Shown here piece by piece: positions 8,937 through 39,294 of a stretch of DNA of 64,000 nucleotides. Under the pieces are notes generated by a model. It saw only the letters and a program-made list of their open reading frames with translations. It had not been told where the DNA came from and made no database searches. The stretch comes from a virus: IMG/VR virus record IMGVR_UViG_3300045988_103180; one strand, given 5' to 3'. Position numbers and translations under genes: made by a program. Positions within the stretch are counted from its first letter, which is position 1; every line of letters starts with the position of its first letter.

Positions 8937-9609
8937 TAACTTTTTTAGGGTATTTCCCGCATGATTTATGCTCTAAACAATAACCGGCTTTGTCGCATTT
9001 ACACTTAAAGAATAAATCACAGATAGTTTTCCATTCATCAGAATATTCAGATAGCGCTTCAATAATGTCTTTCATTAGCTGTCTAAACTCCCAATAGGCA
9101 CGAGTACATAGACGCTGTTCAGCCATTGTCATAAGTGTGCGGCTATTGAAACGACAACTAACAGTCGTTGTCATTCCAAGAGGGAGAACCATATTTGCAT
9201 CTTCCTGCGGAATTCCACATTCCTTTTGCATATAAGTAGTAGCTTCGGCAATAGCTTTCATACAAGAATTGTACATTTGCTTAGCATCTTCATTTGCTGC
9301 AATCTTAGGAGGAACTACATAATCAAAATCTTGATATTTGATATAACGCGTACTTGCCTGTAGACGTGTAGGCGCTCCACCATTATGAGTATAAAATTCT
9401 CGAATTACCTTTGCTGAATACCCTTCTAGAACAAACCATACTTCTCCAAATTCAAGCGTGCGGAAATGCCCATCTTTGATACAAGAAAGACCACGTTTAT
9501 AATTCTTTTCTACGTTACTGGTATCTGTGCCATAACAAGGGCCAGCCATTTCTCCAATTAACGTAATAGGATTTTTAATAGTATTACTGTTAATCGTTAC
9601 TTTTCCCAT
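8929..9609 (-). CDS. thyX: flavin-dependent thymidylate synthase ThyX
   Basis: DGHFRTLEFGEV (GHxSxxEH-like), a THN..STRY variant of the RHRxxSxxxxSxRY motif, and RLCTRAYWEFRQL (AQWEIR-like). Confidence 0.75.
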   Translation of the reverse strand: MGKVTINSNTIKNPITLIGEMAGPCYGTDTSNVEKNYKRGLSCIKDGHFRTLEFGEVWFVLEGYSAKVIREFYTHNGGAPTRLQASTRYIKYQDFDYVVPPKIAANEDAKQMYNSCMKAIAEATTYMQKECGIPQEDANMVLPLGMTTTVSCRFNSRTLMTMAEQRLCTRAYWEFRQLMKDIIEALSEYSDEWKTICDLFFKCKCDKAGYCLEHKSCGKYPKKVID

Positions 9610-10474
9610 TTACACCATCCTGTGAATTGAAACCATAGTTAACTGCATTATATACATCAATATAATATTTTTCTTTTTCATTTAATTCTTCTTGCGGGCA
9701 AAGCTCAACGACTTCAAATGTAAATTGGTCTAAGCCATCTTTAAGCATTGCTGCATACATCTTGTTATCTTTAGGTGTCTTTATGCCACATCCGCAACGA
9801 CAGTGCTGTGTAAAACGATTTGCAATATCTACAGACTGACCTATATAGCATTTTGTATCATTTATGTCTGTAATCTTATAAATACCGCAAGTTTTTTCAG
9901 TACCAACAATATTAACGAATAAAGCCTTTGCTTTCTTCTGGAAATACGTTGACCAAATTAGCTTTGAAAGAATCTCTGGGTTAGAAAGGCGGTTCTTAAA
10001 CGAATTTAAAATATCAATATCTGCTTTATCACTATCTTCGATAATGATACGATAATCATCTTTAGAATCTTGAACCGCCTGTTCACGTTGAAACGCTTCA
10101 ATTGTCGCAGCCTTTTGTCGCTTTAGTTTATCAAGCGAGTTTTGAAGAATTTGAATTTGCTCGACATATTCAGCTTTATCTTCATCGACTTGAGCCTGAA
10201 AATCACGAAGATTATTCATGATATTCTCTTTTTCAATTTTCTTGAAATCTTCAAAGCTCTGCTTCTGCTGTTCCACATTCTCTTGGAGAGATTTTAAATG
10301 TGCCTTTTCATTTTGAATTTGATATTCAATATGCTCTCGCGCAATAAGAACTTCTTTGTTGTTCTCTTTGACTATATCACATGTTTCTTTTCTGCCAGCT
10401 ATAACGCCTACGCTATAGCCGCATACGACAAATGTAATAGCGCAGACAACAGCTATAATAAATTCGAGAGCCAT
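9590..10474 (-). CDS. T5orf172/GIY-YIG-like nuclease domain protein with N-terminal TM helix and coiled coil
   Basis: C-terminal CGIYKITD...CYIGQSVDIANRFTQH...NEKEKYYI. N-terminal hydrophobic helix followed by a long Glu/Lys/Gln coiled coil. Confidence 0.6.
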   Translation of the reverse strand: MALEFIIAVVCAITFVVCGYSVGVIAGRKETCDIVKENNKEVLIAREHIEYQIQNEKAHLKSLQENVEQQKQSFEDFKKIEKENIMNNLRDFQAQVDEDKAEYVEQIQILQNSLDKLKRQKAATIEAFQREQAVQDSKDDYRIIIEDSDKADIDILNSFKNRLSNPEILSKLIWSTYFQKKAKALFVNIVGTEKTCGIYKITDINDTKCYIGQSVDIANRFTQHCRCGCGIKTPKDNKMYAAMLKDGLDQFTFEVVELCPQEELNEKEKYYIDVYNAVNYGFNSQDGVNGKSND

Positions 10475-17290: not shown

Positions 17291-18751
17291 TTAGAAGAGG
17301 TAGTTCTCGCTATCGTTGGCGTAGAAATGGTAGTTATCATTGATGTAGTCGTACAGCTTGCCGCCATTCTCTACGTATTTAAGCATCTTGAAGACGTTAT
17401 CGTTCAGAGCTGTCATGAGGTGGACGTCAGGATTGCCTGGATTAGCAATTTGGTCAGCATAGTTACCTAGGTCGAAACTATAAAGAATTGTGCGGCCATG
17501 TGTGGCACAATAATTATTATAGTTGCACATATCGTAAGTACTATCTCCCCAATAATGATACTGTCTTGCCATCACCTGCATATCAGAAACAACGAAGATG
17601 CGGTCGTACTTCTTATCACTGATAATACCGAAAGCAGGAGCAATGTCAGTTCCATAACCGCAATTATCGTTCTCACACATTTCACGAATGACTTGGAATG
17701 GGCCGCAAGCCTTCTTGAAAGTTGCAGACTTAGCACGATTGCCGAACTTTACAAAATCGCAATTACCATTAATGTAAAGAGCCGCAGCATAGCAAGCGCC
17801 AACTTCCTTGATAGTAAGATTGGACTTGTTACCGTAGCGGTCTTCCATCGAACCGGAAACATCAAGCATGATAACGGAATTACCTTCTAGCTTGGGCATA
17901 TTGCCGCAAGCAATACGGAAAGCAGTATCAAGTGCAGTGATAACTGCAAAGTTCTGAACATTTAGATTACGATAAGCAGTATAAATCTGATAAGGAAATA
18001 CAAGAGACTTCTTGATAGAAACCTCGTTAATAAGCTGGTCTACAAGATTACGCTTAATCCATTCGTCGTCAACGTCCTCTGCGAGAATGTTATTGAGATT
18101 ACGGATAAGAGCGAGATAACCGAGACGATTACCCTCAACCATATTCTTCCAACTGTTCTTGCCAGTGGAGATATTGACTTCCCAAGTATCAGCAGCTTCT
18201 AGCTTACCATTCATGTAACCATCAACAATGCCACTCTTGGGATGAATGATATTGATAAGGTCATACATGTTATAGCGCTTACCCTTCATCTGATACTTCA
18301 TAAGATTGTACTCAGAAAGACCAGACATATAATCTGCAAAACCACGAATCATAGCATGAGAACGCTTGCCACCAAGCATGTCAACAGCTGCGAAAATCTC
18401 AGACATATCATCAGGACGATGACAGAAAGCCTTATAGAAATCGCGCTTGCGCTCAAAGCTCTGACCATTCAGCATAGCCGCAACAAGCTGCGAAACACTA
18501 CGCATACCAAGTTGGTTTCGTGCAAACATGGCACACTTACCAGCGAACTCAGCGCCATACTTATCAATTACAAGATTCGTAAGTTCGATGAAACGAGTCT
18601 GCTGCGTGTCAGCATTCTCATAGAAACCATCGTCCATCTTGCTAGAGAACAAGAAATTCATCCAATCCTCAAGTACATCCTTCTTGTAATTCTCGCCGCC
18701 CTCGTATGACATAGAACGTTCGGTCTTAACCTTTTCATTAAACTTAGACAT
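17291..18751 (-). CDS. rsr: Ro60/Rsr ortholog (TROVE domain + vWA/MIDAS)
   Basis: YEGGENY..LEDWMNFLF..GFYE, LMKYQMKGKRYNMYDLINIIHPK, MIDAS IMLDVSGSM, GYGTDIAP, IFVVSDMQ. These line up with my recollection of Deinococcus Rsr. Confidence 0.75.
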   Translation of the reverse strand: MSKFNEKVKTERSMSYEGGENYKKDVLEDWMNFLFSSKMDDGFYENADTQQTRFIELTNLVIDKYGAEFAGKCAMFARNQLGMRSVSQLVAAMLNGQSFERKRDFYKAFCHRPDDMSEIFAAVDMLGGKRSHAMIRGFADYMSGLSEYNLMKYQMKGKRYNMYDLINIIHPKSGIVDGYMNGKLEAADTWEVNISTGKNSWKNMVEGNRLGYLALIRNLNNILAEDVDDEWIKRNLVDQLINEVSIKKSLVFPYQIYTAYRNLNVQNFAVITALDTAFRIACGNMPKLEGNSVIMLDVSGSMEDRYGNKSNLTIKEVGACYAAALYINGNCDFVKFGNRAKSATFKKACGPFQVIREMCENDNCGYGTDIAPAFGIISDKKYDRIFVVSDMQVMARQYHYWGDSTYDMCNYNNYCATHGRTILYSFDLGNYADQIANPGNPDVHLMTALNDNVFKMLKYVENGGKLYDYINDNYHFYANDSENYLF

Positions 18752-20724: not shown

Positions 20725-21657
20725 TTAGTTGTTAAGAATGTACTCGCGCACTCGTGCCTGAGCAAGACCCTTGATTGCGGCCAACTTTACAGAAGCAGCC
20801 TTCTTCTTCTTGAAGAAGTCCCAGAAGTTCTCTTCAATAAGCTCGTCAAGAACTTTGTTGATAGCCATGCCAAAGAACTTACCATTCTTACAATCAATCA
20901 TATCCATATCGAGAGCGATAAGGACCTTGTTGATTTCCTTCTCGACAAAAGCATCAGTGCAATACTTCTCTACGAACTCCTTCTCCAAGGAATCAGTTCC
21001 AGTATAGGCAGTCTTCTTCTTAGTCTTGTCATTATGCCACTCATCACGTACAATCTTTGCAATTTGGATATTGCCCCACGGGTCGCGCACACAAGGATAA
21101 GCCTTGATTACGATGCCCTCACCGATAGTCCCCTTTGGAAGATTGTAAATACATTCGTCAACATGCTTATTCACATCATCCCAAGTCATGTTGCTGATGC
21201 GGCAAATGACAGGAACGCAACGATGATAGAACTTGCTGACTACTGGATACCATACATCATAATCAATATACTCACTATCATCAGTATTGAGAATATCAAA
21301 GATGAAGAATCCGCCCTCAAGATAAGTTTTGATAGTACCAGTGAACTTGCGGCCATCAACTCCGCCAAGCCACTCACCATAAATGATATAATTAGGATGG
21401 TCAAGCAACCAATTCTTTAGTGCATTAACCTCAGTATCGTCAGTGTTGGTGATATAATCAGCGAAACCAGCGTTATCCTTCTCGATAGAAATCTCACGAG
21501 TGCGGCTACCGCAAGTAATATTTCCATTATCGTTTACCCAGACAGAACTATTCGTACCATCCAGCTTCGGCTGCAAAATTGTGTCACGACCGATAAAGTT
21601 CTGAACTTCTGCACGAGTCGAGCGCTCAAGATGCACATACTTATTGAAATGAGACAT
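20725..21657 (-). CDS. Rnl2-like RNA ligase (nucleotidyltransferase superfamily)
   Basis: Motif I QPKLDGTN, motif III IIYGEW, motif IV GEGIVIK, motif V IAKIVRDEW. Confidence 0.6.
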   Translation of the reverse strand: MSHFNKYVHLERSTRAEVQNFIGRDTILQPKLDGTNSSVWVNDNGNITCGSRTREISIEKDNAGFADYITNTDDTEVNALKNWLLDHPNYIIYGEWLGGVDGRKFTGTIKTYLEGGFFIFDILNTDDSEYIDYDVWYPVVSKFYHRCVPVICRISNMTWDDVNKHVDECIYNLPKGTIGEGIVIKAYPCVRDPWGNIQIAKIVRDEWHNDKTKKKTAYTGTDSLEKEFVEKYCTDAFVEKEINKVLIALDMDMIDCKNGKFFGMAINKVLDELIEENFWDFFKKKKAASVKLAAIKGLAQARVREYILNN

Positions 21658-22507: not shown

Positions 22508-23020
22508 ATGAAACATACGCTAATTCTAATGTGTGGCGTAACGCAGAGTGGCAAATCTGTATTTGCAAAGGCAATTCAAGATTCACATGAAGACTGTATG
22601 ACAATCAAGAGAGATAATTGCCGCATGTATAATTCAGAAGATGCAAACACAGTTGACAAACGTTTCTATAATGCAGTAAATATTGCCTTAAAATCACATC
22701 GTTACGTTGTGGCGAATGACCGCAATATCAATCGCGTTGAGCGCGATAAATTTTTCAACAATGTAAATTATAATGGTTGCGAGGTTGTTTGTGTTTGGGT
22801 TGAGACTCCACAAAATGTAGCAGTTGCGCGCAATAAGAATCGTGATAAATATCATCGTTTAAGTGAAAAGGAAATTGCAGAAATGTATAGATGCAAAGTT
22901 TCGCCACAAGAAAATGAGTCGTTTGACAAGATTGTATTTATTTCAGAGCAGCAAAACTACGCTATCGGCACAAATAATATGCAAATTTTGCCAATCATTG
23001 ACCAACTAAAGGCAATCTAG
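22508..23020 (+). CDS. P-loop polynucleotide-kinase-like (AAA_33-type) kinase
   Basis: Walker A MCGVTQSGKS, RDNCR, and WVETPQNVAVARNKNR resembling the T4 Pnk kinase domain. Confidence 0.55.
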   Translation: MKHTLILMCGVTQSGKSVFAKAIQDSHEDCMTIKRDNCRMYNSEDANTVDKRFYNAVNIALKSHRYVVANDRNINRVERDKFFNNVNYNGCEVVCVWVETPQNVAVARNKNRDKYHRLSEKEIAEMYRCKVSPQENESFDKIVFISEQQNYAIGTNNMQILPIIDQLKAI

Positions 23021-25040: not shown

Positions 25041-25613
25041 ATGATTACTCAGTATGGTTGCAGCACAGAGTTTTGTGAGACAGCAAGGCGCAATGTGATT
25101 GACGCATATAAAAAGTGGACCGATGAAGAGATTAAAGCTGACCTGCAAAAGAATAGGCTCCCGATGGTTTCTATCTTTATGAATGTAGGATATAATATCA
25201 ATATTGCCAGCGGCATCCGCGCACATAATGCGTTTCTTGGAAAAGAAATCTATATCATTGGCCGTAAGAAATGGGACAGGCGTGGCTCAATTAGCACTCA
25301 TAGATATGAAACTGTATATCATGCTGATAATTTTGATGAAGTTTTAGAAATTCTTCACCCTCTTGGATATACTATCTTTGCTGTGGATAATATTCCAGAG
25401 TATAATCCGCATAATATTTATGATGCCGACATTCCCATGAAGTCTGCGTTTGTATATGGCAATGAGTGTGACGGTTTGCCAAAAGAAATCATTGACAAAT
25501 GCGATGAAATGATTTATATTCGTCAATATGGTTCTTGCCGTTCATTGAATGTTGCGCAAAGCGCAGCCTGTTGCATGATGGAATATTCTCGACGTTATAG
25601 GATGAAAGGTTAA
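25041..25613 (+). CDS. SpoU/TrmH-family RNA 2'-O-ribose methyltransferase
   Basis: SPOUT C-terminal knot motifs: FVYGNECDGLPKEI, IYIRQYGSCRSLNVAQSAA. Confidence 0.7.
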   Translation: MITQYGCSTEFCETARRNVIDAYKKWTDEEIKADLQKNRLPMVSIFMNVGYNINIASGIRAHNAFLGKEIYIIGRKKWDRRGSISTHRYETVYHADNFDEVLEILHPLGYTIFAVDNIPEYNPHNIYDADIPMKSAFVYGNECDGLPKEIIDKCDEMIYIRQYGSCRSLNVAQSAACCMMEYSRRYRMKG

Positions 25614-25614
25614 T

Positions 25615-26244
25615 ATGCGTTATTGCAAAATTCAAGCTATTGTAAATGATATTCCATATACTCTATATGGACAATTTGATAATCTTATTTCATATGATGA
25701 AATTGAATATTATATCTCCGAAGCAATTGACTTTAACATCGAAGATGAGGAAGAAGAACTTGACTTTGAAGTTATATTGATGGACGATTTTGGTGCAGAG
25801 TTTAAGTGCGAGGACATGTCTTTGAACGACTGGCTTTCAAATGTTATCTGTGATTACAAGCATGTGCGGCCTATCCTTCAAGTCTATGTTTTAGGAAACC
25901 TCATGGATAACATGGTTTCTATATATCGTTCATATGAGGAAGATATTAGTAAAACTCCACAGTATCTATATCTAAGTGGTGAAGTCAGCAAAGATGAAGG
26001 TCGTAAGTATTCTGCCGCATGTGTCGTAGCTCCAGATAAGCAGCGCGTTGAGGTAATCGAAGAAGGCTGGAAAGACCTTCTCGGTCGTATCAAGCGTGAC
26101 GACAATATGGGTGGAGTATATATCAAGACAGGTATCTTCACTGTATTCGATGTACCGCAAGAAGACTATGAACGATATAAGAAGAATACAGAATTAGTAT
26201 TAGATTCAAGGTGGGATTCTATTGAACAACAGTATCCAAGTTAA
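25615..26244 (+). CDS. hypothetical protein
   Basis: 209-aa acidic ORF. No motif recognised. Confidence 0.45.
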   Translation: MRYCKIQAIVNDIPYTLYGQFDNLISYDEIEYYISEAIDFNIEDEEEELDFEVILMDDFGAEFKCEDMSLNDWLSNVICDYKHVRPILQVYVLGNLMDNMVSIYRSYEEDISKTPQYLYLSGEVSKDEGRKYSAACVVAPDKQRVEVIEEGWKDLLGRIKRDDNMGGVYIKTGIFTVFDVPQEDYERYKKNTELVLDSRWDSIEQQYPS

Positions 26245-27187
26245 CGTGTCTATTCCTCGTGGTATTGATGCCGTCAATGTGCTAGGCCCATCAGATAGGT
26301 ATGTAAGGGCCGTAAAAGAACAAATTGATGATACACTGCGTGTTAATCTTGGACGCTCTAATGAAGAAAATACTATTGTAATTTTCGGCAAGGAGAAGTC
26401 TGTATATCAAGCTCAAGAGGTATTTGAAAAGCTGATTGAAATTAAAGACGAAATCAGTACAGATGAAGTGCAGCTTCTTGCCAAGCAAAGTGTAGATGGT
26501 GGTATTTTTGATAACTCTGGTTCTTCTACTACTGTTCTTAAATATGGTAAAAAGGAAATCAAAGTACGAACAGAAGGTCAGCTTGAATATCTGAATAGTA
26601 TGCGGTGCAATGCTATTACTATTTGTATTGCACCTCCTGGTGCTTCAAAAACCTATACGGCTGTATGCTATGCACTGTCTCAGCTTATCAATAAGAATGT
26701 AGATACAATCGTTATTTCTCGCCCAATGGTTTCAGCGAAAGGCGAAGCAGATTTAGGTGCTCTGCCCGGCACTGCCGATGAAAAGTTTTCACTATATGCA
26801 CTTCCTATGATGGATGTATTTGAACGAGTTCTCGGACGTGAGAAACTTGATTCATATATTGAAAAAGGTAAAATCAAAATGCTGCCGCTAGGGTATATGC
26901 GCGGATGTTCTCTATATAAAACTTTCCTTCTCGTGGATGAAGCAGAGAACATGAATACGATTCTAGGAAAACTCGCAGTCACACGTTTAGGAGAAGATTC
27001 TAAGATTGTTCTATGCGGCGATTTGGTTCAGCAAGATTCCAAAGGCGAAAGCGGTCTTGAATATCTTGCCAATAGTCTAAAAGATGTATCTGGTATTGGC
27101 GTAGTACGTATGACAGAAGCAGATGTTGTAAGGCACGCTCTTATCACTAAAATGTTAAATGCTTTTGCCGCATACGATGAAAAATAA
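26222..27187 (+). CDS. phoH: PhoH-like ATPase
   Basis: Walker A APPGASKTYTAV, Walker B LLVDEAENM, CGDLVQQD. Confidence 0.8.
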   Translation: MNNSIQVNVSIPRGIDAVNVLGPSDRYVRAVKEQIDDTLRVNLGRSNEENTIVIFGKEKSVYQAQEVFEKLIEIKDEISTDEVQLLAKQSVDGGIFDNSGSSTTVLKYGKKEIKVRTEGQLEYLNSMRCNAITICIAPPGASKTYTAVCYALSQLINKNVDTIVISRPMVSAKGEADLGALPGTADEKFSLYALPMMDVFERVLGREKLDSYIEKGKIKMLPLGYMRGCSLYKTFLLVDEAENMNTILGKLAVTRLGEDSKIVLCGDLVQQDSKGESGLEYLANSLKDVSGIGVVRMTEADVVRHALITKMLNAFAAYDEK

Positions 27188-28765: not shown

Positions 28766-29713
28766 ATGAACGAAGTCGATATACTGCGTAATAGCTCGCT
28801 TGTGCGCGAGAAGCATCTTGCCAATGGAATCTCTTCTTTTAATTTCTCAAACAAGTGCTTTTTCAACCAAGCATGGGATGATATTAATGTTAAAGCACGC
28901 GGACTTTTTGTAAAAGATGATAATAAGGTTGTTGCACGTTCGTACAACAAGTTCTTCAATATTGGAGAGCGTCCTGAGACTGAAATGGCTAGCCTGCGCG
29001 AGAATCTTGTGTTCCCTGTGTGCGCATATGTCAAGTCTAACGGATTCCTTGCTATGATTTCTGCCGACCCGACCGAGGATGGTAAACTGTTCATCGCATC
29101 CAAGAGCACGAATGAGGGAGATTTCGCAGGATATATCCGTGACGTTCTTGACAAGACGTTGACCACTGCACAGCAGGAGGAATTCGCAGAATATCTGCAC
29201 AAGAATGACTGCACTGCTGTCTTCGAGTGCATTGACCCTATCCATGACCCGCATATCGTTGAGTATTCGCATCCTCACCTCGTGCTTTTGGACTTGGTGT
29301 ACAATGATTTTAACTATAGCCATGCGGGGTACTATACACTTATTGACGTAGCGGGACATTTCGGATTCTATTGCAAGGTTCTTAGCAAAGTCATTGCTAA
29401 CTGGCAGGAGTTTGAAGCCTTTATTGACAAGTGGGCCGCGTGTGCATACATCGAGGGCTTTGTCTTCGAGGATTCGAACGGTTTCATGGTGAAATATAAG
29501 ACTCCTTGGTACAAGAACTGGAAGCAGGTTCGTGGAGTTTTACAGCAGGTTTGGACTGGACGCGATATTGATACTATCAAGAACATCAAGACCAAGCTGG
29601 CATTTGAACCTCGTCTCATGGCCGCAATTCCTGAGTTCGTGGAAGAGTGCCGCGAGCAAGGTCGTGGAGCTTGCCCCTCGGTAATCGAATTGCGTAACTG
29701 GTTTGAAAATTAA
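28766..29713 (+). CDS. T4 Rnl1-like (RnlA/Trl1-type) tRNA-repair RNA ligase
   Basis: Colinear with T4 Rnl1 as I recall it: KARGLFV, YNKFFNIGERPE (MEKFFNLNENP), motif I YVKSNGFL, VFECIDP, IEGFVFEDSNGFMVKYKTPWY ([21 protein letters not shown]). Confidence 0.7.
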   Translation: MNEVDILRNSSLVREKHLANGISSFNFSNKCFFNQAWDDINVKARGLFVKDDNKVVARSYNKFFNIGERPETEMASLRENLVFPVCAYVKSNGFLAMISADPTEDGKLFIASKSTNEGDFAGYIRDVLDKTLTTAQQEEFAEYLHKNDCTAVFECIDPIHDPHIVEYSHPHLVLLDLVYNDFNYSHAGYYTLIDVAGHFGFYCKVLSKVIANWQEFEAFIDKWAACAYIEGFVFEDSNGFMVKYKTPWYKNWKQVRGVLQQVWTGRDIDTIKNIKTKLAFEPRLMAAIPEFVEECREQGRGACPSVIELRNWFEN

Positions 29714-33451: not shown

Positions 33452-33585
33452 ATTTTTAGTTACAAAATAAAAGTTCTGGACAAAAAGTTATAATTTTTGT
33501 TGCGCAACTTTTATATTGTAATAGTGGTGTTAGAGCCTGCAAGATTTCTAGAGTATTGCAGGCTCATTTTCTTTTAACATTCTGA

Positions 33586-33658
33586 GCTGCCGTAGCTCAA
33601 CTGGCAGAGCAGCTGATTTGTAATCAGCAGGTTGTAGATTCGATTTCTATCGGCAGCT
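33586..33658 (+). tRNA. tRNA-Thr(TGT)
   Basis: Acceptor GCTGCCG/CGGCAGC, D-arm GCTC..GAGC, anticodon loop TTTGTAA, T-loop TTCGATT. Confidence 0.85.
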
Positions 33659-33775
33659 CAGAGTGCTAATCTTAGACACTCTCCAAGTGGTAGTAGACCG
33701 AGCTTTGAACTCGCCTGTACTACCCCAAGTCAATTTTAGCGGTTTGGACAGTCGCTATATAAATTTGTCCATTTT

Positions 33776-33848
33776 TGGCTCTTCTTCTAACGGAATAGGA
33801 AAGTGCGCTCTGACCGCATTAATGAAAGTTCGAGTCTTTCAGAGCCAG
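33776..33848 (+). tRNA. tRNA-Gln(CTG)
   Basis: U1-A72 acceptor TGGCTCT/AGAGCCA (Gln-like), anticodon loop CTCTGAC, T-loop TTCGAGT. Confidence 0.6.
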
Positions 33849-33866
33849 CCTAGTTAAAAAAATTAC

Positions 33867-33895
33867 TTGACAAATACCAAGTAATTTTATATAAT
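33867..33895 (+). promoter_or_regulatory. sigma70-type promoter driving the permuted tRNA-like RNA 1
   Basis: TTGACA-17-TATAAT. The -35 lies in the palindrome AATTACTTG..CAAGTAATT. Confidence 0.55.
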
Positions 33896-33901
33896 ATAGT
33901 T

Positions 33902-34000
33902 AACAAATCGTGATGGTGAAGGTTCAGGTTCGACTCCTGCCGCTGTCCGACAAGGACGGCGTAGTTTCAATTGGTGAGAATAGCACCTAGCGATTGTGTT
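33902..34000 (+). ncRNA. circularly permuted tRNA-like RNA 1 (YrlA-class Y-RNA candidate)
   Basis: Terminal stem AACAAATCG/CGATTGTGTT with one bulge, then UGAU. T-arm CAGG-TTCGACT-CCTG. 8-bp acceptor-like stem CGCTGTCC/GGACGGCG closed by GACAA. D-arm GTTT-CAATTGGTGA-GAAT. Confidence 0.55.
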
Positions 34001-34370
34001 ATATCCAATGCTTGGGGAGAGGTTATCGCTGCAAGGTAAATGTCTCCCGACTTCTATAATCTTTTGCAGGGATTATAGATTAAAGGGTTGGCGGTTTTCC
34101 CAGTTTGAAACCGTCCACGTGATTATATTATCTTGCTTGCAAGATTTTATATATGCCGGCTCTGTAGCCGTAGACAATGCGGGCCAGCGCATACTTGAAA
34201 AGAAGCGCCTAGGGGAAGAGGAATCTGGTATATTTTGGTAGTTTTCAAACCTCTGCAGATGTGAAAACTACTACTTTAATTGCGGGTGGGAGGTCAGTAT
34301 CTCACGGAGTCTCATAAGCTCTGTTAAGTTTCGGCAGCAGAAACACCTCGCGACCAATTTTTGTTATAAA
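34001..34370 (+). ncRNA. ORF-free, hairpin-dense RNA segment of unknown class
   Basis: G+C-richer than its surroundings. Hairpins GGGGAGA..TCTCCC, TCTATAATC..GATTATAGA, ATCTTGC..GCAAGAT, GTAGTTTTCA..TGAAAACTAC. No RBS-preceded ORF. Confidence 0.35.
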
Positions 34371-34377
34371 AAATTAT

Positions 34378-34407
34378 TTGACAAATAGTTGAATAATTTG
34401 ATATAAT
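34378..34407 (+). promoter_or_regulatory. sigma70-type promoter
   Basis: TTGACA-18-TATAAT, within the palindrome AAATTATT..AATAATTT. Confidence 0.55.
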
Positions 34408-34569
34408 ATATCTAGAAGGAAAGGGAAAAAGGATAGTCAACAGTACCGTCAACAAACCAGTGACCCTGCGGCTTATTGCCAACACCCAGAAGTGTAATGC
34501 TTAGTACGCTGTTAGGTTTGACCATTTGTTTTCTTCTAGTGTAGTAAACCAAGAGAAAGGTAAGAAAGT

Positions 34570-34710
34570 ATGGCACAGTCAATCGAGACGATGGAACAGC
34601 GTTATCAGATGCTACTTAACCGCAAAGGTAAGAACTCAGAAAATGTAGGCATCATGCGCAAGCTACGCCGCAAGATTAACAAGGCAAAGCAGGGTGTCAT
34701 TCTTTCCTAA
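34570..34710 (+). CDS. hypothetical 46-aa basic protein
   Basis: Below the ORF-track cutoff. Leader CCAAGAGAAAGGTAAGAAAG before the ATG. MAQSIETMEQRYQMLLNRKGK... Confidence 0.4.
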   Translation: MAQSIETMEQRYQMLLNRKGKNSENVGIMRKLRRKINKAKQGVILS

Positions 34711-34724
34711 TTAAGTTTATTTAT

Positions 34725-34822
34725 TATGCGTGATGAGGGTTCAGTTACTTCGTGAAGATTTTATGGGATATTTTAAATGCGGTACGCTGCATTTGTTAGT
34801 CTGACCCCAATTTTTCCGCATA
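34725..34822 (+). ncRNA. repeat-family structured RNA, copy R0
   Basis: P1 TATGCG/CGCATA, UGAU, P2 GGGTTCAG/CTGACCCC, TTACTTCG, AATTTTTC. Confidence 0.55.
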
Positions 34823-34893
34823 TTTTTTCTTGACTTCTGGTCTATGTATATTATGATATAATATACATAGACCAAGAGAGAAAGAGGTTTGTT

Positions 34894-35049
34894 ATGAAGC
34901 AGTTCGTCATTTGTCGTGAAAAGACCTGCGGTATCTATTCAATTCGTGTCAACACTGATTGTTCTACTGTTCGTTTTGAGATAATCAAAGATTTCGACAC
35001 GTTTGAAGATGCAGACAACTACCTTCATAATATTCTTCTATATAAGTAA
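34894..35049 (+). CDS. hypothetical 51-aa protein
   Basis: Below the ORF-track cutoff. Leader CCAAGAGAGAAAGAGG. MKQFVICREKTCGIYSIRV... Confidence 0.4.
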   Translation: MKQFVICREKTCGIYSIRVNTDCSTVRFEIIKDFDTFEDADNYLHNILLYK

Positions 35050-35059
35050 TTCATTCTAT

Positions 35060-35128
35060 TGGAGTGTAATTCAGTTGGTAGAATGTTGTTAACTCAACGT
35101 GTCGCAGGTTCGAGTCCTGTCACTTCAA
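35060..35128 (+). tRNA. tRNA-like gene, Asn-paralog with truncated anticodon arm (pseudo-tRNA or mimic)
   Basis: Same acceptor 5' strand (TGGAGTG) as tRNA-Asn, with good D and T arms. Only 19 nt separate the D and T arms (4-bp stem GTTG/CAAC, 6-nt loop). Confidence 0.4.
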
Positions 35129-35157
35129 TAGAACAAAACGTGGCTTATCTACCCTGC

Positions 35158-35229
35158 TGGAGTGTAGCTCAATGGTAGAGCCTGCGGCTGTTAACCGCAT
35201 TGTTGTAGGTTCGAGTCCTACCATTCCAG
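35158..35229 (+). tRNA. tRNA-Asn(GTT)
   Basis: U1-A72 acceptor TGGAGTG/CATTCCA, anticodon loop CTGTTAA, T-loop TTCGAGT. Confidence 0.85.
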
Positions 35230-35280
35230 CAGAGTAGATAGCTACTCAATTTATCCAAAAGTAGAAAAGGAGCTTTGTAA

Positions 35281-35727
35281 ATGTCGTATCCTTATAAGGA
35301 TGAAGTATTGGCAACTAAATATGCTTATATTCCCGATGATGCGGCCAATGCTCCCGCTCGCAAAAAGAAAAAGACAGTGAAGAAAGCCAATCATAAGCAC
35401 GCTTACGATAAGAGTATTGTTATCAATTACTTTGATAAGTACGCTGGCACATGGACTTATGCCTATAGGAATGTTTGTACTATTTGCGGTCGTATCGGTG
35501 ATTTTGTTGATAATGAGGGAATTATCAAAAAGACTTTCCCGCATGTCAAGCCTAGCTGGTTTGGTTTTGCTGTTTCTTTTGGATATAACGATGAATTTGC
35601 TGAATTTACCGAGTGGTCAAAGACTTGGTATCCTCTGATTATTTGGAAAGACTATCAGCCTTTGGATGACAAGTTTATTCCAGACGAGTTTTTTGATATG
35701 CTTGGGATTCAGAAACAAACCAATTAA
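35281..35727 (+). CDS. hypothetical protein embedded in the tRNA island
   Basis: 148-aa ORF behind AAAGGAG. CTICGR. No family recognised. Confidence 0.45.
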   Translation: MSYPYKDEVLATKYAYIPDDAANAPARKKKKTVKKANHKHAYDKSIVINYFDKYAGTWTYAYRNVCTICGRIGDFVDNEGIIKKTFPHVKPSWFGFAVSFGYNDEFAEFTEWSKTWYPLIIWKDYQPLDDKFIPDEFFDMLGIQKQTN

Positions 35728-35731
35728 AGAT

Positions 35732-35825
35732 GCGCCGGCACTCCGATTGGCCTTGAGAGCGGGGACTCAAAATCCTTTGGCGGTAACCATTCCGCATGTC
35801 GGTCCGAATCCGACCCGGCGTACCA
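35732..35825 (+). tRNA. tRNA-Leu(CAA), type II, CCA encoded
   Basis: Acceptor GCGCCGG/CCGGCGT, anticodon loop CTCAAAA, long variable arm GCGG..CCGC, T-arm GTCGG-TCCGAAT-CCGAC. Confidence 0.6.
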
Positions 35826-35827
35826 TT

Positions 35828-35912
35828 GCCGCAGTATTCCTTTAAAGACGAGGGGAAGACTGTAAATCTTCTGTCTATGACTGGCTAGGAGCGTTACCTA
35901 GATGCGGCACCA
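35828..35912 (+). tRNA. tRNA-Tyr(GTA)-like gene with non-canonical T-loop and D-arm, CCA encoded
   Basis: Anticodon arm GAAGA-CTGTAAA-TCTTC is canonical. The T-arm CTAGG-AGCGTTA-CCTAG lacks TTC, and the 7th acceptor pair is mismatched. Confidence 0.35.
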
Positions 35913-35920
35913 ATGTTTAT

Positions 35921-35996
35921 TAAATGCGTGATTAAGATTCAGTTACTTCGTATGGGCTTATGTATTGTAACACTGAATCTAACTTTTCCGCATTTA
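35921..35996 (+). ncRNA. repeat-family structured RNA, copy R1
   Basis: P1 AAATGCG/CGCATTT, UGAU, P2 AGATTCAG/CTGAATCT, TTACTTCG, AACTTTTC. Confidence 0.55.
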
Positions 35997-36008
35997 TTTG
36001 TTTACCAT

Positions 36009-36114
36009 AATGCGTGATAATAAATCAGTTACTTCATTCTGGAAAAATGCGCTTGCAGGTTCGACTCCTGCTCTGTATCGGTATACATTTTACTGATTTA
36101 GCCTTTTCCGCATT
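36009..36114 (+). ncRNA. repeat-family structured RNA, copy R2 (carries a T-arm-like insert)
   Basis: P1 AATGCG/CGCATT, UGAU, P2 TAAATCAG/CTGATTTA, TTACTTCA. Insert GCAGG-TTCGACT-CCTGC plus hairpin TGTAT-cggt-ATACA. Confidence 0.55.
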
Positions 36115-36130
36115 TACTTTATTAAAGTAG

Positions 36131-36212
36131 GCGATACGTGATAACGTTTCAGATACTTCAAATCTCCATTCTGAGCTGATTACTCAAACTGAAACACCTA
36201 TTTCCGTATCGC
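36131..36212 (+). ncRNA. repeat-family structured RNA, copy R3
   Basis: P1 GCGATACG/CGTATCGC, UGAU, P2 GTTTCAG/CTGAAAC, ATACTTCA. The insert shares CATTCTGAGCTG with the tRNA-Thr 5' end. Confidence 0.55.
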
Positions 36213-36222
36213 TTTCTCTTGT

Positions 36223-36334
36223 GCGGCAAGTGATTAGTAAAGAGTTACTTCGTTATATGATATGTTTAAATAAGAGCAACTTTCACTAGAAAGAGGCAAC
36301 CCCACCTATACTCTTTACACTTTTTCCTTACCGT
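36223..36334 (+). ncRNA. repeat-family structured RNA, copy R4
   Basis: P1 GCGGCAAG/CTTACCGT (one mismatch), UGAU, P2 GTAAAGAG/CTCTTTAC, TTACTTCG, ACTTTTTC. Confidence 0.5.
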
Positions 36335-36386
36335 TATTTGTAAACCCCTTTCTCGCCTATATAGTGTGCGAGCTATATAGACACAA

Positions 36387-36467
36387 ATGTGCGTGATTAT
36401 TATTCAGTTACTTCATATAGCAATTTTTATGACCATCCAACACTGAATAAACTTTTTCCGCACACAT
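36387..36467 (+). ncRNA. repeat-family structured RNA, copy R5
   Basis: P1 ATGTGCG/CGCACA(ca)T, UGAU, P2 TTATTCAG/CTGAATAA, TTACTTCA, ACTTTTTC. Confidence 0.55.
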
Positions 36468-36478
36468 TGATATTTTAT

Positions 36479-36506
36479 AGGGACTCTTTTGAGTCCCTAT
36501 TTTTTG
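36479..36506 (+). terminator. rho-independent terminator
   Basis: AGGGACTC-tttt-GAGTCCCT followed by ATTTTTTG. Confidence 0.6.
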
Positions 36507-36536
36507 TTGACTATTGGCTATATATTATGCTATAAT
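36507..36536 (+). promoter_or_regulatory. sigma70-type promoter
   Basis: TTGACT-18-TATAAT. Confidence 0.55.
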
Positions 36537-36563
36537 ATATTTAAGAAATCGAAAGGAGATTCA

Positions 36564-37100
36564 ATGAGCATCTTTGTAGTCAGTGACACTCATTTTTCGC
36601 ATCAGAATATTATCAATTATTGTGAGAAGTCGCGTGCTTTTAATACGGTTGATGACATGAACGAAGACATCATCGAAAGGTGGAATTCCGTTGTATCTCC
36701 TGATGATACTATCTATCATCTTGGTGATTGCTTCATGGGACCGCTTGAGACTGTAGCTAAATATGGTTCTCATCTCAATGGAAAGGTTCATGTGATTCCC
36801 GGCAATCATGATACCAAGAAACGCATTGCTGAAATGGAAAAGCTCGGCTGGATTATTGAAAACAAGGTATCTTGTCTTGATTACAATGATGTCAGTTTCA
36901 TTATGATTCACGAGCGCCCCGAGGAAATGCGTGGAGACAGCGCCAATGTCATTCTATACGGTCATGTTCATGATGCGGCTCCCAAGGGCCTTGTTGATTG
37001 GACATATCATGTAGGTGTTGACACTAATAATCTTACTCCTGTTAATATTCATGACATTTGGCTCGATGTCCAGCAGAAGAAGATTGAGCTTGGAGAGTAA
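36564..37100 (+). CDS. calcineurin-like metallophosphoesterase
   Basis: MSIFVVSDTHFSH, YHLGDCF, IPGNHD, GHVH. Start at 36564 behind GAAAGGAG. Confidence 0.75.
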   Translation: MSIFVVSDTHFSHQNIINYCEKSRAFNTVDDMNEDIIERWNSVVSPDDTIYHLGDCFMGPLETVAKYGSHLNGKVHVIPGNHDTKKRIAEMEKLGWIIENKVSCLDYNDVSFIMIHERPEEMRGDSANVILYGHVHDAAPKGLVDWTYHVGVDTNNLTPVNIHDIWLDVQQKKIELGE

Positions 37101-39214: not shown

Positions 39215-39286
39215 GTGTTAGTAGTTTAACTGGCAGAATTGCAAGGTGACGTTCTTGAGATTGGAGTTCGAATCTCCACTAGCGCA
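39215..39286 (+). tRNA. tRNA-like gene with 8-nt anticodon loop (Val-GAC-like)
   Basis: Acceptor GTGTTAG/CTAGCGC (two G-U pairs), D-arm GTTT..GAAT, T-arm TGGAG-TTCGAAT-CTCCA. The anticodon stem CAAG/CTTG encloses GTGACGTT. Confidence 0.4.
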
Positions 39287-39294
39287 CGAAAATT

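Follow-up and report, generated by a model that had tools for sequence, protein, structure and literature searches.

The window analysed here is a 64,000-nt stretch of viral DNA (IMG/VR record IMGVR_UViG_3300045988_103180), taken at its full length. It holds six copies of a structured RNA element, all on the + strand and numbered 1 to 6 in 5'->3' order, as well as a gene for a Ro60/TROVE protein. Judged from sequence comparisons, the six elements are very probably genes for small (~75-110 nt) Y RNA-like noncoding RNAs that would partner the phage's own Ro60/TROVE protein. A preliminary description of the window had listed six copies with a single plan, and matches to the covariance model described below place all six on the + strand with bounds essentially as given there.

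The plan common to the six copies was read directly from the sequence. It consists of an outer helix (P1), the 5' junction UGAUNR, an inner helix (P2), the box (U/A)UACUUC, a variable insert, the 3' strand of P2 (P2'), the 3' junction NNNNUUUC and the 3' strand of P1 (P1'). P1 has 7 bp in every copy and can be extended to 8 bp in copy 4 (GCGAUACG/CGUAUCGC). The 5' junction is 6 nt long (UGAU plus 2 nt). P2 has 8 bp, except in copy 4 (7 bp), and contains one U/C mismatch in copy 1; it ends in CAG, or in GAG in copy 5. The 7-nt box past P2 reads UUACUUC in five copies and AUACUUC in copy 4, the inserts range from 23 to 59 nt, and the 3' junction is 8 nt long, the last four being UUUC. The P1-side junction is (A/U)GCG-UGAUNR, and CAAG-UGAUUA in copy 5, whose P1 and P2 are complementary, yet entirely unlike those of the other copies in sequence. 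The expected nested helices form in each copy folded individually. The layout of the copies, with their scores under the covariance model R1, is as follows.

34724-34823, + strand: copy 1; P1 34724-34730/34817-34823; UGAUGA 34731-34736; P2 34737-34744/34801-34808; UUACUUC 34745-34751; insert 34752-34800; 3' junction AAUUUUUC 34809-34816; R1 72.4 bits
35922-35995, + strand: copy 2; P1 35922-35928/35989-35995; UGAUUA; P2 35935-35942/35973-35980; UUACUUC 35943-35949; insert 23 nt; 3' junction AACUUUUC; R1 75.1 bits; fold z = -4.3
36008-36115, + strand: copy 3; P1 36008-36014/36109-36115; UGAUAA; P2 36021-36028/36093-36100; UUACUUC 36029-36035; insert 57 nt with the T arm GCAGG-UUCGACU-CCUGC; 3' junction GCCUUUUC; R1 71.0 bits
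36132-36211, + strand: copy 4; P1 36132-36138/36205-36211; UGAUAA; P2 36145-36152/36189-36196; AUACUUC 36153-36159; insert 29 nt; 3' junction CCUAUUUC; R1 69.4 bits; fold z = -5.1
36224-36333, + strand: copy 5; P1 36224-36230/36327-36333; UGAUUA; P2 36237-36244/36311-36318 (GAG/CUC end); UUACUUC 36245-36251; insert 59 nt; 3' junction ACUUUUUC; R1 68.0 bits
36387-36465, + strand: copy 6; P1 36387-36393/36459-36465; UGAUUA; P2 36400-36407/36443-36450; UUACUUC 36408-36414; insert 28 nt; 3' junction ACUUUUUC; R1 78.5 bits

Three invariant single-stranded boxes had been claimed for this plan. The plan itself stood, and the 3' box did not stand as it had been written, its constant part across the six copies being the terminal UUUC only.

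R1 was built from 26 family sequences with the P1/P2 structure. Run on the window with filters off, it returned exactly six matches (68-78 bits), and the next best match scored 15 bits. The number of matches to a partial pattern expected in shuffled sequence was zero. In the MAFFT alignment of the 26 sequences, 94% of cells were paired vs. 21-46% in slid-partner controls, and 12 of the 15 pairs were altered on both sides. In 67 sequences from diverged phages, 93% of cells were paired and all 15 pairs were altered on both sides; this second alignment was fitted to R1, and the structure is thereby favoured. The six repeated structured RNAs are real, and the earlier claim that P1 and P2 diverge among copies while staying complementary is borne out by strong covariation in both helices. 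Among the 67 members, the invariant loop bases are G-UGAY and UUUC-C, and the UAC of the box is at least 90% conserved. The elements have a terminal stem formed from the 5' and 3' ends, broken by a conserved internal loop and enclosing a variable module, which is the layout expected of a Y RNA.

Tandem copies with terminal inverted complementarity (P1) would also be seen if these were repeats acting at the DNA level, that is, recombination sites or miniature mobile elements. Such repeats are barely credible here: two nested helices are kept by compensatory change while their sequences differ, all copies share the orientation of transcription, the single-stranded boxes lack symmetry and are specific to one strand, and some members of the family contain tRNA-like domains.

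Searches for known RNA classes gave no match on the six copies when 33500-36700 was compared with 4227 Rfam families, both at the gathering threshold and at E <= 10; the absence of a described Rfam model, on which the preliminary description had staked its claim of a family, therefore holds at threshold. The sole match to the Rfam YrlA model in the window (36 bits, 35083-35211) was an artefact across two adjacent tRNAs. Neither ARAGORN nor Rfam RF00005 detected a tRNA cloverleaf on any of the six copies. A blastn comparison of 33500-37100 with GenBank phages gave tRNA matches only, indicating that there is no close cultured relative. Three other candidates were rejected. A kink-turn requires GA on both strands beside the stem, for the tandem sheared G.A pairs that come after its three-nucleotide bulge; if UGAU(G)A ... 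CUGA is read as a kink-turn or box C/D motif, the CUGA turns out to be base-paired, as the 3' strand of P2, and UUUC, with no GA, stands beside P1'. Hammerhead and other self-cleaving ribozymes had no Rfam match and, by eye, GUGAUNA lacks the conserved G8 and the GAAA box is missing. UUACUUC was compared by eye with an anticodon loop in several registers, none of which had U33 and a purine at 37.

The protein proposed as the partner of the six RNAs is encoded by the following gene of the window.

17291-18751, - strand: Ro60/TROVE protein gene, 486 aa (Pfam TROVE PF05731, E = 3.8e-15)

When compared with structures, the profile of its homologs matched the Ro60 of Thermus phage phiLo (9l5y/9kop, E = 1.6e-34), and also Xenopus Ro60 (1yvp, 1.5e-5) and D. 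radiodurans Rsr (2nvo, 4e-4). The nearest TROVE proteins of GenBank phages are <30% identical (tblastn). At 99% identity, the TROVE cluster has 1179 member sequences, and the family appears to be widespread.

Bacterial Y RNAs are called by their position beside rsr on the same strand (Chen et al. 2014, PMC4201824). We aligned the TROVE homologs, fetched 47 viral loci, oriented them on the TROVE gene, and ran R1 on the 24 with a TROVE protein 39-71% identical. One to four R1 matches were found within ~1 kb upstream of the TROVE start in 20 of these 24 diverged loci, and all matches were on the TROVE strand. The family as a whole is thus encoded near a Ro60 ortholog and on its strand. Running a covariance model of the family on phage loci, as the preliminary description had suggested, recovered the copies and found relatives beside TROVE genes. 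Examples of the arrangement are given below.

L145: members at 9742-9883 and 9900-9991, TROVE start at 10001
L153: four copies, 9462-9958
L151: three copies
L167 (TROVE 39% identical): three copies

The same RNA-upstream-of-TROVE arrangement was found in one contig of a metagenome-assembled genome (MAG; L169). In a control set of 843 kb of unrelated loci with the 22-nt seed pattern, R1 gave three matches, none above 29 bits. In the close relatives L135, L137 and L139 (TROVE 85-93% identical), no R1 match lay within 10 kb of TROVE on either side; the arrays of close relatives sit elsewhere on their contigs. In L172, a 635-kb uncultured phage with a TROVE protein 28% identical, one R1 match of 19.9 bits lies ~400 nt upstream of TROVE. 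It has AUACUUCG and AAUUUCC boxes and no UGAU; this match is suggestive and was not counted.

A scan of IMG/VR with the pattern GTGATN7CAGTTACTTC gave many chance matches, and the relatives reported from it here are among the matches listed. These comprise multi-copy arrays in ~135-147-kb phage contigs close to the window, mostly from one sample, and a few diverged single matches. The diverged pattern matches in L002, L029, L040, L063, L090 and L095 were tied to TROVE-encoding contigs by contig name, and L026 has a TROVE C-terminal fragment at its contig end. Among the matches listed, every cross-matched contig with a convincing member encoded TROVE. In a scan of genomes with the TROVE profile, the only hits were four MAG contigs, binned as Bacillales, Bacilli, Clostridium and Bacteroidetes, which is a weak hint as to the host.

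The position of the elements in the TROVE 5' region in most lineages, the short inter-copy spacers, like those of tRNA arrays, and the similarity of P1 to an acceptor-type stem could be explained by a function in cis. The elements would then be processing punctuation, insulators or stabilisers in tRNA and mRNA transcripts or, upstream of TROVE, an autoregulatory 5' leader. We consider this highly improbable. The window has six tandem paralogs with differing helices and inserts, distant from TROVE and on the other strand, and members of the family follow TROVE genes, not tRNA operons in general. Characterised Y RNAs are likewise co-transcribed upstream of rsr, yet act in trans (PMC4201824). The processing or insulator role that had been proposed for the elements gained no support, most other lineages having them upstream of TROVE rather than amid tRNAs.

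The diverged members resolve what the family is: they contain a permuted tRNA-like domain, the architecture of YrlA. In L026, L063 and L090, the whole of this domain stands in the place of the insert within the same P1-UGAU-P2-UUACUUC ... P2'-box-P1' frame; its parts are a T arm containing GGUUCGAAUCC, an acceptor-like hairpin that is short and closed, and a D arm (UAGCUCA..GGUAGAGC). Of the 67 aligned members, ~17 (128-150 nt) have T and D arms, ~7 have the T arm alone, and the remaining ones (74-117 nt) lack both; the long members that were inspected also have the closed acceptor-like hairpin within the same frame. Long and short RNAs often stand side by side upstream of TROVE, like the YrlA/YrlB pairs of Salmonella and M. 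smegmatis. All six window copies are of the short kind, copy 3 retaining a T arm. In L063 (TROVE 71% identical), the element at the position corresponding to copy 1, with the same P1 and a similar promoter after it, is a full tRNA-like YrlA-type RNA. The statement that the family matched no known RNA class did not survive these comparisons: the frame is Y RNA-like, of the YrlA type, has long members with the permuted tRNA-like domain, and lies upstream of TROVE. Taken together, the family frame, the TROVE linkage and the YrlA layout identify the six elements as probable Y RNA-like genes in which the tRNA-like module would have been lost or replaced. The role of Ro60 ligand, which the preliminary description had listed first among its candidates, is backed by this comparative evidence.

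The similarity to YrlA (Rfam RF02553; Salmonella, M. smegmatis, mycobacteriophages; Chen et al. 2014, PMC4201824) extends over the whole frame. Both have a terminal stem formed from the two ends, an asymmetric internal loop (5/8 nt in YrlA vs. 6/8 nt in the family) and a second stem of 7-8 bp. The Rfam YrlA consensus runs from a 6-bp stem through a 5/8-nt loop and a 7-bp stem to CUAC and then the tRNA-like part, a layout equal to that of the family. In YrlA, a conserved YUAY starts the V loop (PMC4201824); the sequence at this place is CUAC in YrlA, UUAC, which agrees with YUAY, in five window copies, and AUAC in copy 4. YrlA and the long family members have the permuted tRNA-like domain with its T arm, closed acceptor hairpin and D arm, and for YrlA as for the family, the gene lies beside that of a Ro60 ortholog and on its strand, and a shorter second RNA often accompanies it. 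Unlike YrlA, the family has the 5' motif GCG-UGAUNR instead of GNCGAAN0-1G, and its UACUUC and UUUC boxes go beyond the published description. The window copies further differ in having no tRNA-like domain, in being remote from the Ro60 gene and inside a tRNA operon, and in their number, with six or seven paralogs in the window vs. at least two reported per characterised bacterium (PMC4201824).

The window copies also resemble YrlB/Yrn2-type RNAs, which are short, associated with Ro60 and bound by Rsr, and have a docking region in common with YrlA while the full tRNA mimic is missing. M. smegmatis YrlB keeps a possible T arm, as does copy 3. YrlB and Yrn2 were found by immunoprecipitation only and have no sequence model, whereas the present family has a sequence-defined frame that joins short and long forms.

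Among phages, the Thermus phage phiLo Ro60 (phiRo60; PDB 9L5Y, 9KOP) is the closest solved relative of the TROVE protein of the window. It binds two phage Y RNA-like RNAs, Yrl1 and Yrl2, encoded upstream of the Ro60 gene, and recruits host PNPase, whose hijacking is among the proposed roles (PMC12135203). The two RNAs were chosen by a CGAA in a large bulge, and UACUUC/UUUC boxes are not reported in the passages on them; by that description, the phiLo RNAs are set apart from the present family.

The Streptomyces phages BRock (L174 2244-2740) and GiJojo (L173 2110-2590) have four-element arrays upstream of a Ro-like gene, in tRNA clusters. In each element, the terminal stem is followed by CGAUGCGNAG, the second stem and UUACUUC or AUACUUC; then come a module that is variable or tRNA-like, CUUUUUCUA or a sequence near it, and the closing strand. 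At least one element per phage has a tRNA-like module, and long and short forms are mixed. Unlike in the family, the 5' junction CGAUGCGNAG is near the YrlA type (GAUGCG in the Streptomyces phages, near YrlA CGAAUGC, vs. UGAUNR in the family), the 3' junction ends in CUAG, and P1 and P2 are shorter. The TROVE proteins are 23-25% identical, and the elements score 12-17 bits with R1 and 31-33 bits with Rfam YrlA. The presence of UUACUUC and CUUUUUC boxes in these actinophage arrays indicates that UACUUC and CUUUUUC are common to a very wide span of phage Ro60 systems. The BRock and GiJojo arrays are unannotated or mis-annotated; tRNA-Arg and tRNA-Ser annotations in GiJojo and LuckySocke overlie array matches.

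Metazoan Y RNAs are alike in that Ro60 binds a conserved terminal stem interrupted by a bulge or an internal loop, and in that the loop module varies from paralog to paralog. They are unlike the family in that their GGUCCGA/UUGACC bulged helix has no similarity to it, they are Pol III transcripts, and the loop has no tRNA ancestry.

The window also has a seventh element, of the YrlA type.

33902-33998, + strand: terminal stem, CG-UGAUGG, T arm, 7-bp closed acceptor-like hairpin, D-arm-like region, CUAG, terminal stem

Its CG-UGAUGG agrees with the earlier observation that the P1-UGAU junction recurs at 33902. The P2 helix and the UACUUC and UUUC boxes are absent from 33902-33998, and neither R1 nor Rfam YrlA gives a match there. 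The element folds with -32.4 kcal/mol (z = -2.6), and its 5' end coincides with the predicted transcription start of a sigma-70 promoter at 33867-33895 that matches at 12 of 12 positions. It is kept in close relatives, with a T stem that is changed but complementary (CAGG/CCTG vs. CGGG/CCCG), and CUAG stands ahead of the closing strand, as in the Streptomyces phage elements. The element at 33902-33998 is the tRNA-like form of the window.

Two tRNA-derived pieces that had been noticed in the inserts were found to be present. The T arm of copy 3 is real, and its stem shows a compensatory change in orthologs (cAgg/ccUg to cUgg/ccAg). The stretch said to be common to an insert and tRNA-Thr is CATTCTGAGCTG, whose 12 nt are identical in the insert of copy 4 (36167-36178) and in the leader plus first four bases of tRNA-Thr (33578-33589); it may be a relic of the tRNA 5' half in the insert. 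No recognisable tRNA element was found in four of the six copies. These tRNA-derived pieces are best explained as remnants of the YrlA tRNA-like module, not as decoy fragments. Decoys had been among the roles first suggested: the RNAs would act independently of Ro60 as tRNA mimics, soaking up anticodon nucleases or other tRNA-targeting defence beside ligase and kinase repair. The array does lie within a tRNA cluster adjoining RNA-repair genes, the T arm and the 12 nt from tRNA-Thr are there, and the inserts evolve fast, as in an arms race. We nevertheless regard decoys as very unlikely. Conservation resides in the frame, not in the tRNA-like pieces that most copies lack, no anticodon stem-loop mimic was seen by eye in the conserved boxes, and the tie between frame and TROVE across lineages is left unexplained. 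The decoy role accordingly gained no support, and none of the rival explanations accounts for both the conserved non-tRNA frame and the TROVE linkage.

Orthologs of the copies differ mainly in the inserts, with identities of 0.91-1.00 in the frame vs. 0.53-0.94 in the insert. Variation is greatest in the inserts of copies 2 and 6 (copy 2: insert ~53%, frame ~91% identical; copy 6: insert ~79%, frame 100% identical) and least in that of copy 4 (90-94% conserved). Stronger conservation of the frame is the pattern expected of a common docking module with variable modules. In L167 (9590-9991), all three copies have UACUAC for UACUUC and CUUCC for UUUCC. These paired variants suggest that the boxes co-evolve with a single trans-acting partner or contact one another. 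In L002 (5418-11308; TROVE 47% identical), at least eight members, long and short, are spread over 6 kb, ~15 kb from TROVE, and large dispersed arrays are therefore not unique to the lineage of the window.

Several observations weigh against the identification of the six elements as Y RNA-like partners of Ro60. The six copies have no Rfam YrlA score, and even their long relatives reach only 32-34 bits (L063, 31.8 bits; L153, 34.3 bits), below the gathering cut-off of 69. The Ro60-recognition motif GNCGAAN0-1G (or CGAA of phiLo) is not in the six copies, which have GCG-UGAUNR in its place. The tRNA-like domain that defines YrlA is missing from them, with a T arm in copy 3 only and a D arm in none. 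They are 16-19 kb from the TROVE gene of the window and on the opposite strand; adjacency on the same strand, as used by Chen et al. (2014), is seen at the level of the family and not in the six window copies. The constant co-occurrence of RNA and TROVE was drawn among the matches listed.

We infer from the shared frame and the TROVE linkage that the six RNAs bind Ro60. The docking module would consist of P1, the asymmetric loop (5' UGAYNR / 3' NNNNUUUC), P2 and the YUAY-type UUACUUC, as its conservation suggests. The variable insert would be the effector or specificity module; its ancestral long form would be the permuted tRNA-like domain seen in YrlA, which in the window copies may have decayed or been replaced, leaving the T arm in copy 3. 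The RNAs are predicted to be expressed inside tRNA-containing polycistronic transcripts from sigma-70-type promoters and would presumably be excised by tRNA-processing nucleases. By analogy with Rsr, Y RNA and PNPase in D. radiodurans and Salmonella, and with Ro60, Yrl and PNPase in phiLo, each RNA would act as a tether or gate on the Ro60 ring of the phage. The RYPER complex of D. radiodurans and Salmonella is the established Ro60 biology behind this analogy. Different inserts could yield several distinct particles from one Ro60 protein, and these could recruit host exoribonucleases or act with the RNA-repair enzymes of the phage (two RNA ligases, a kinase and a phosphoesterase nearby).

A bolder extension is possible, though we hold it doubtful. 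A widespread clade of ~140-kb uncultured phages might have a cassette system, in which one Ro60-docking frame with exchangeable, fast-evolving inserts provides six to eight particles per phage. The frame would then have a recognition code of its own (G-UGAY, UACUUC and UUUC-C, not GNCGAA), the particles could each have a target of their own among host nucleases, RNA substrates and defence factors, and a turn in function away from tRNA mimicry would be signalled by the missing tRNA-like domain.

The Y RNA class is already known, phages included, and the array of the window stands out by its unusual size and diversification. New are the 5' box GUGAUNR, which is distinct from the published GNCGAA motif, the lack of an Rfam match at threshold for the elements, the expansion to six or seven paralogs, their move into a tRNA operon, and inserts that evolve faster than the frame. 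Many bacterial Y RNAs escape bioinformatic discovery, according to the authors who described them (PMC4201824). Catalogues of Y RNAs from bacteria and phages are poor, and this whole family goes undetected by the Rfam YrlA model. A frame defined by sequence and structure joins long tRNA-like and short RNAs across phages with 39-71% identical Ro60 proteins, and two of its boxes recur in actinophage arrays. The UGAY, UACUUC and UUUC bases are candidate Ro60-recognition determinants beyond GNCGAA. The arrays also indicate that one phage can have six to eight Y RNA paralogs, whose modules diverge and which stand among tRNAs and RNA-repair genes. Whether phage Ro60 serves in nuclease hijacking, in RNA repair or in counter-defence becomes easier to test, and the Streptomyces phages with arrays could serve as an experimental system.

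The genes flanking the array are all on the + strand and have strong sigma-70-like promoters. Copy 1 lies downstream of a 46-aa open reading frame (ORF), which is itself under the promoter 34378-34407. Two features delimit the transcript that would contain the other copies.

34830-34857, + strand: sigma-70-like promoter, 10 of 12 positions matching
36477-36500, + strand: intrinsic terminator after copy 6 at the array end; 10-bp stem with 5 G-C pairs, then a T run

From this promoter to 36477, there is no terminator-like site with a stable stem; two other terminator-like matches lie within tRNA-Asn and within a 148-aa ORF. The promoter probably drives a small ORF, a tRNA-like element, tRNA-Asn, the 148-aa ORF, tRNA-Leu, a tRNA-Tyr-like element and copies 2 to 6, all of which would be co-transcribed as one operon.

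RNA-repair genes are known to accompany phage TROVE proteins (PMC7824862), and the same is seen in the window. Its RNA-repair and modification neighbourhood, which includes radical-SAM enzymes and at least 13 tRNAs, contains the following genes.

20725-21657, - strand: RNA_ligase family (second RNA ligase)
22508-23020: AAA_33 kinase
25041-25613: SpoU methylase
26222-27187: PhoH
28766-29713: T4 Rnl1-type RNA ligase
36564-37100: metallophosphoesterase

Between the YrlA-type element and the perfect promoter 34378-34407 lie ~370 nt (33999-34372) with no convincing ORF, no clear structure signal (fold z = -1.7) and no Rfam match. Several tRNA-related sequences were also observed. At 35060-35128 is a tRNA-like gene with a short anticodon arm (~4-bp stem, 6-nt loop), which scores 44 bits with the Rfam tRNA model and was not called by ARAGORN. 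Directly 3' of tRNA-Leu, a tRNA-Tyr-like sequence (35826-35915) has a 6-7-bp acceptor stem, an ...ACCA end, the anticodon loop CUGUAAA, a long variable arm and the aberrant T loop AGCGUUA; neither ARAGORN nor Rfam called it. At 39215-39287, ARAGORN predicted a tRNA with a four-base anticodon (gacg) and of undetermined identity, which heads a dense array of six further tRNAs.

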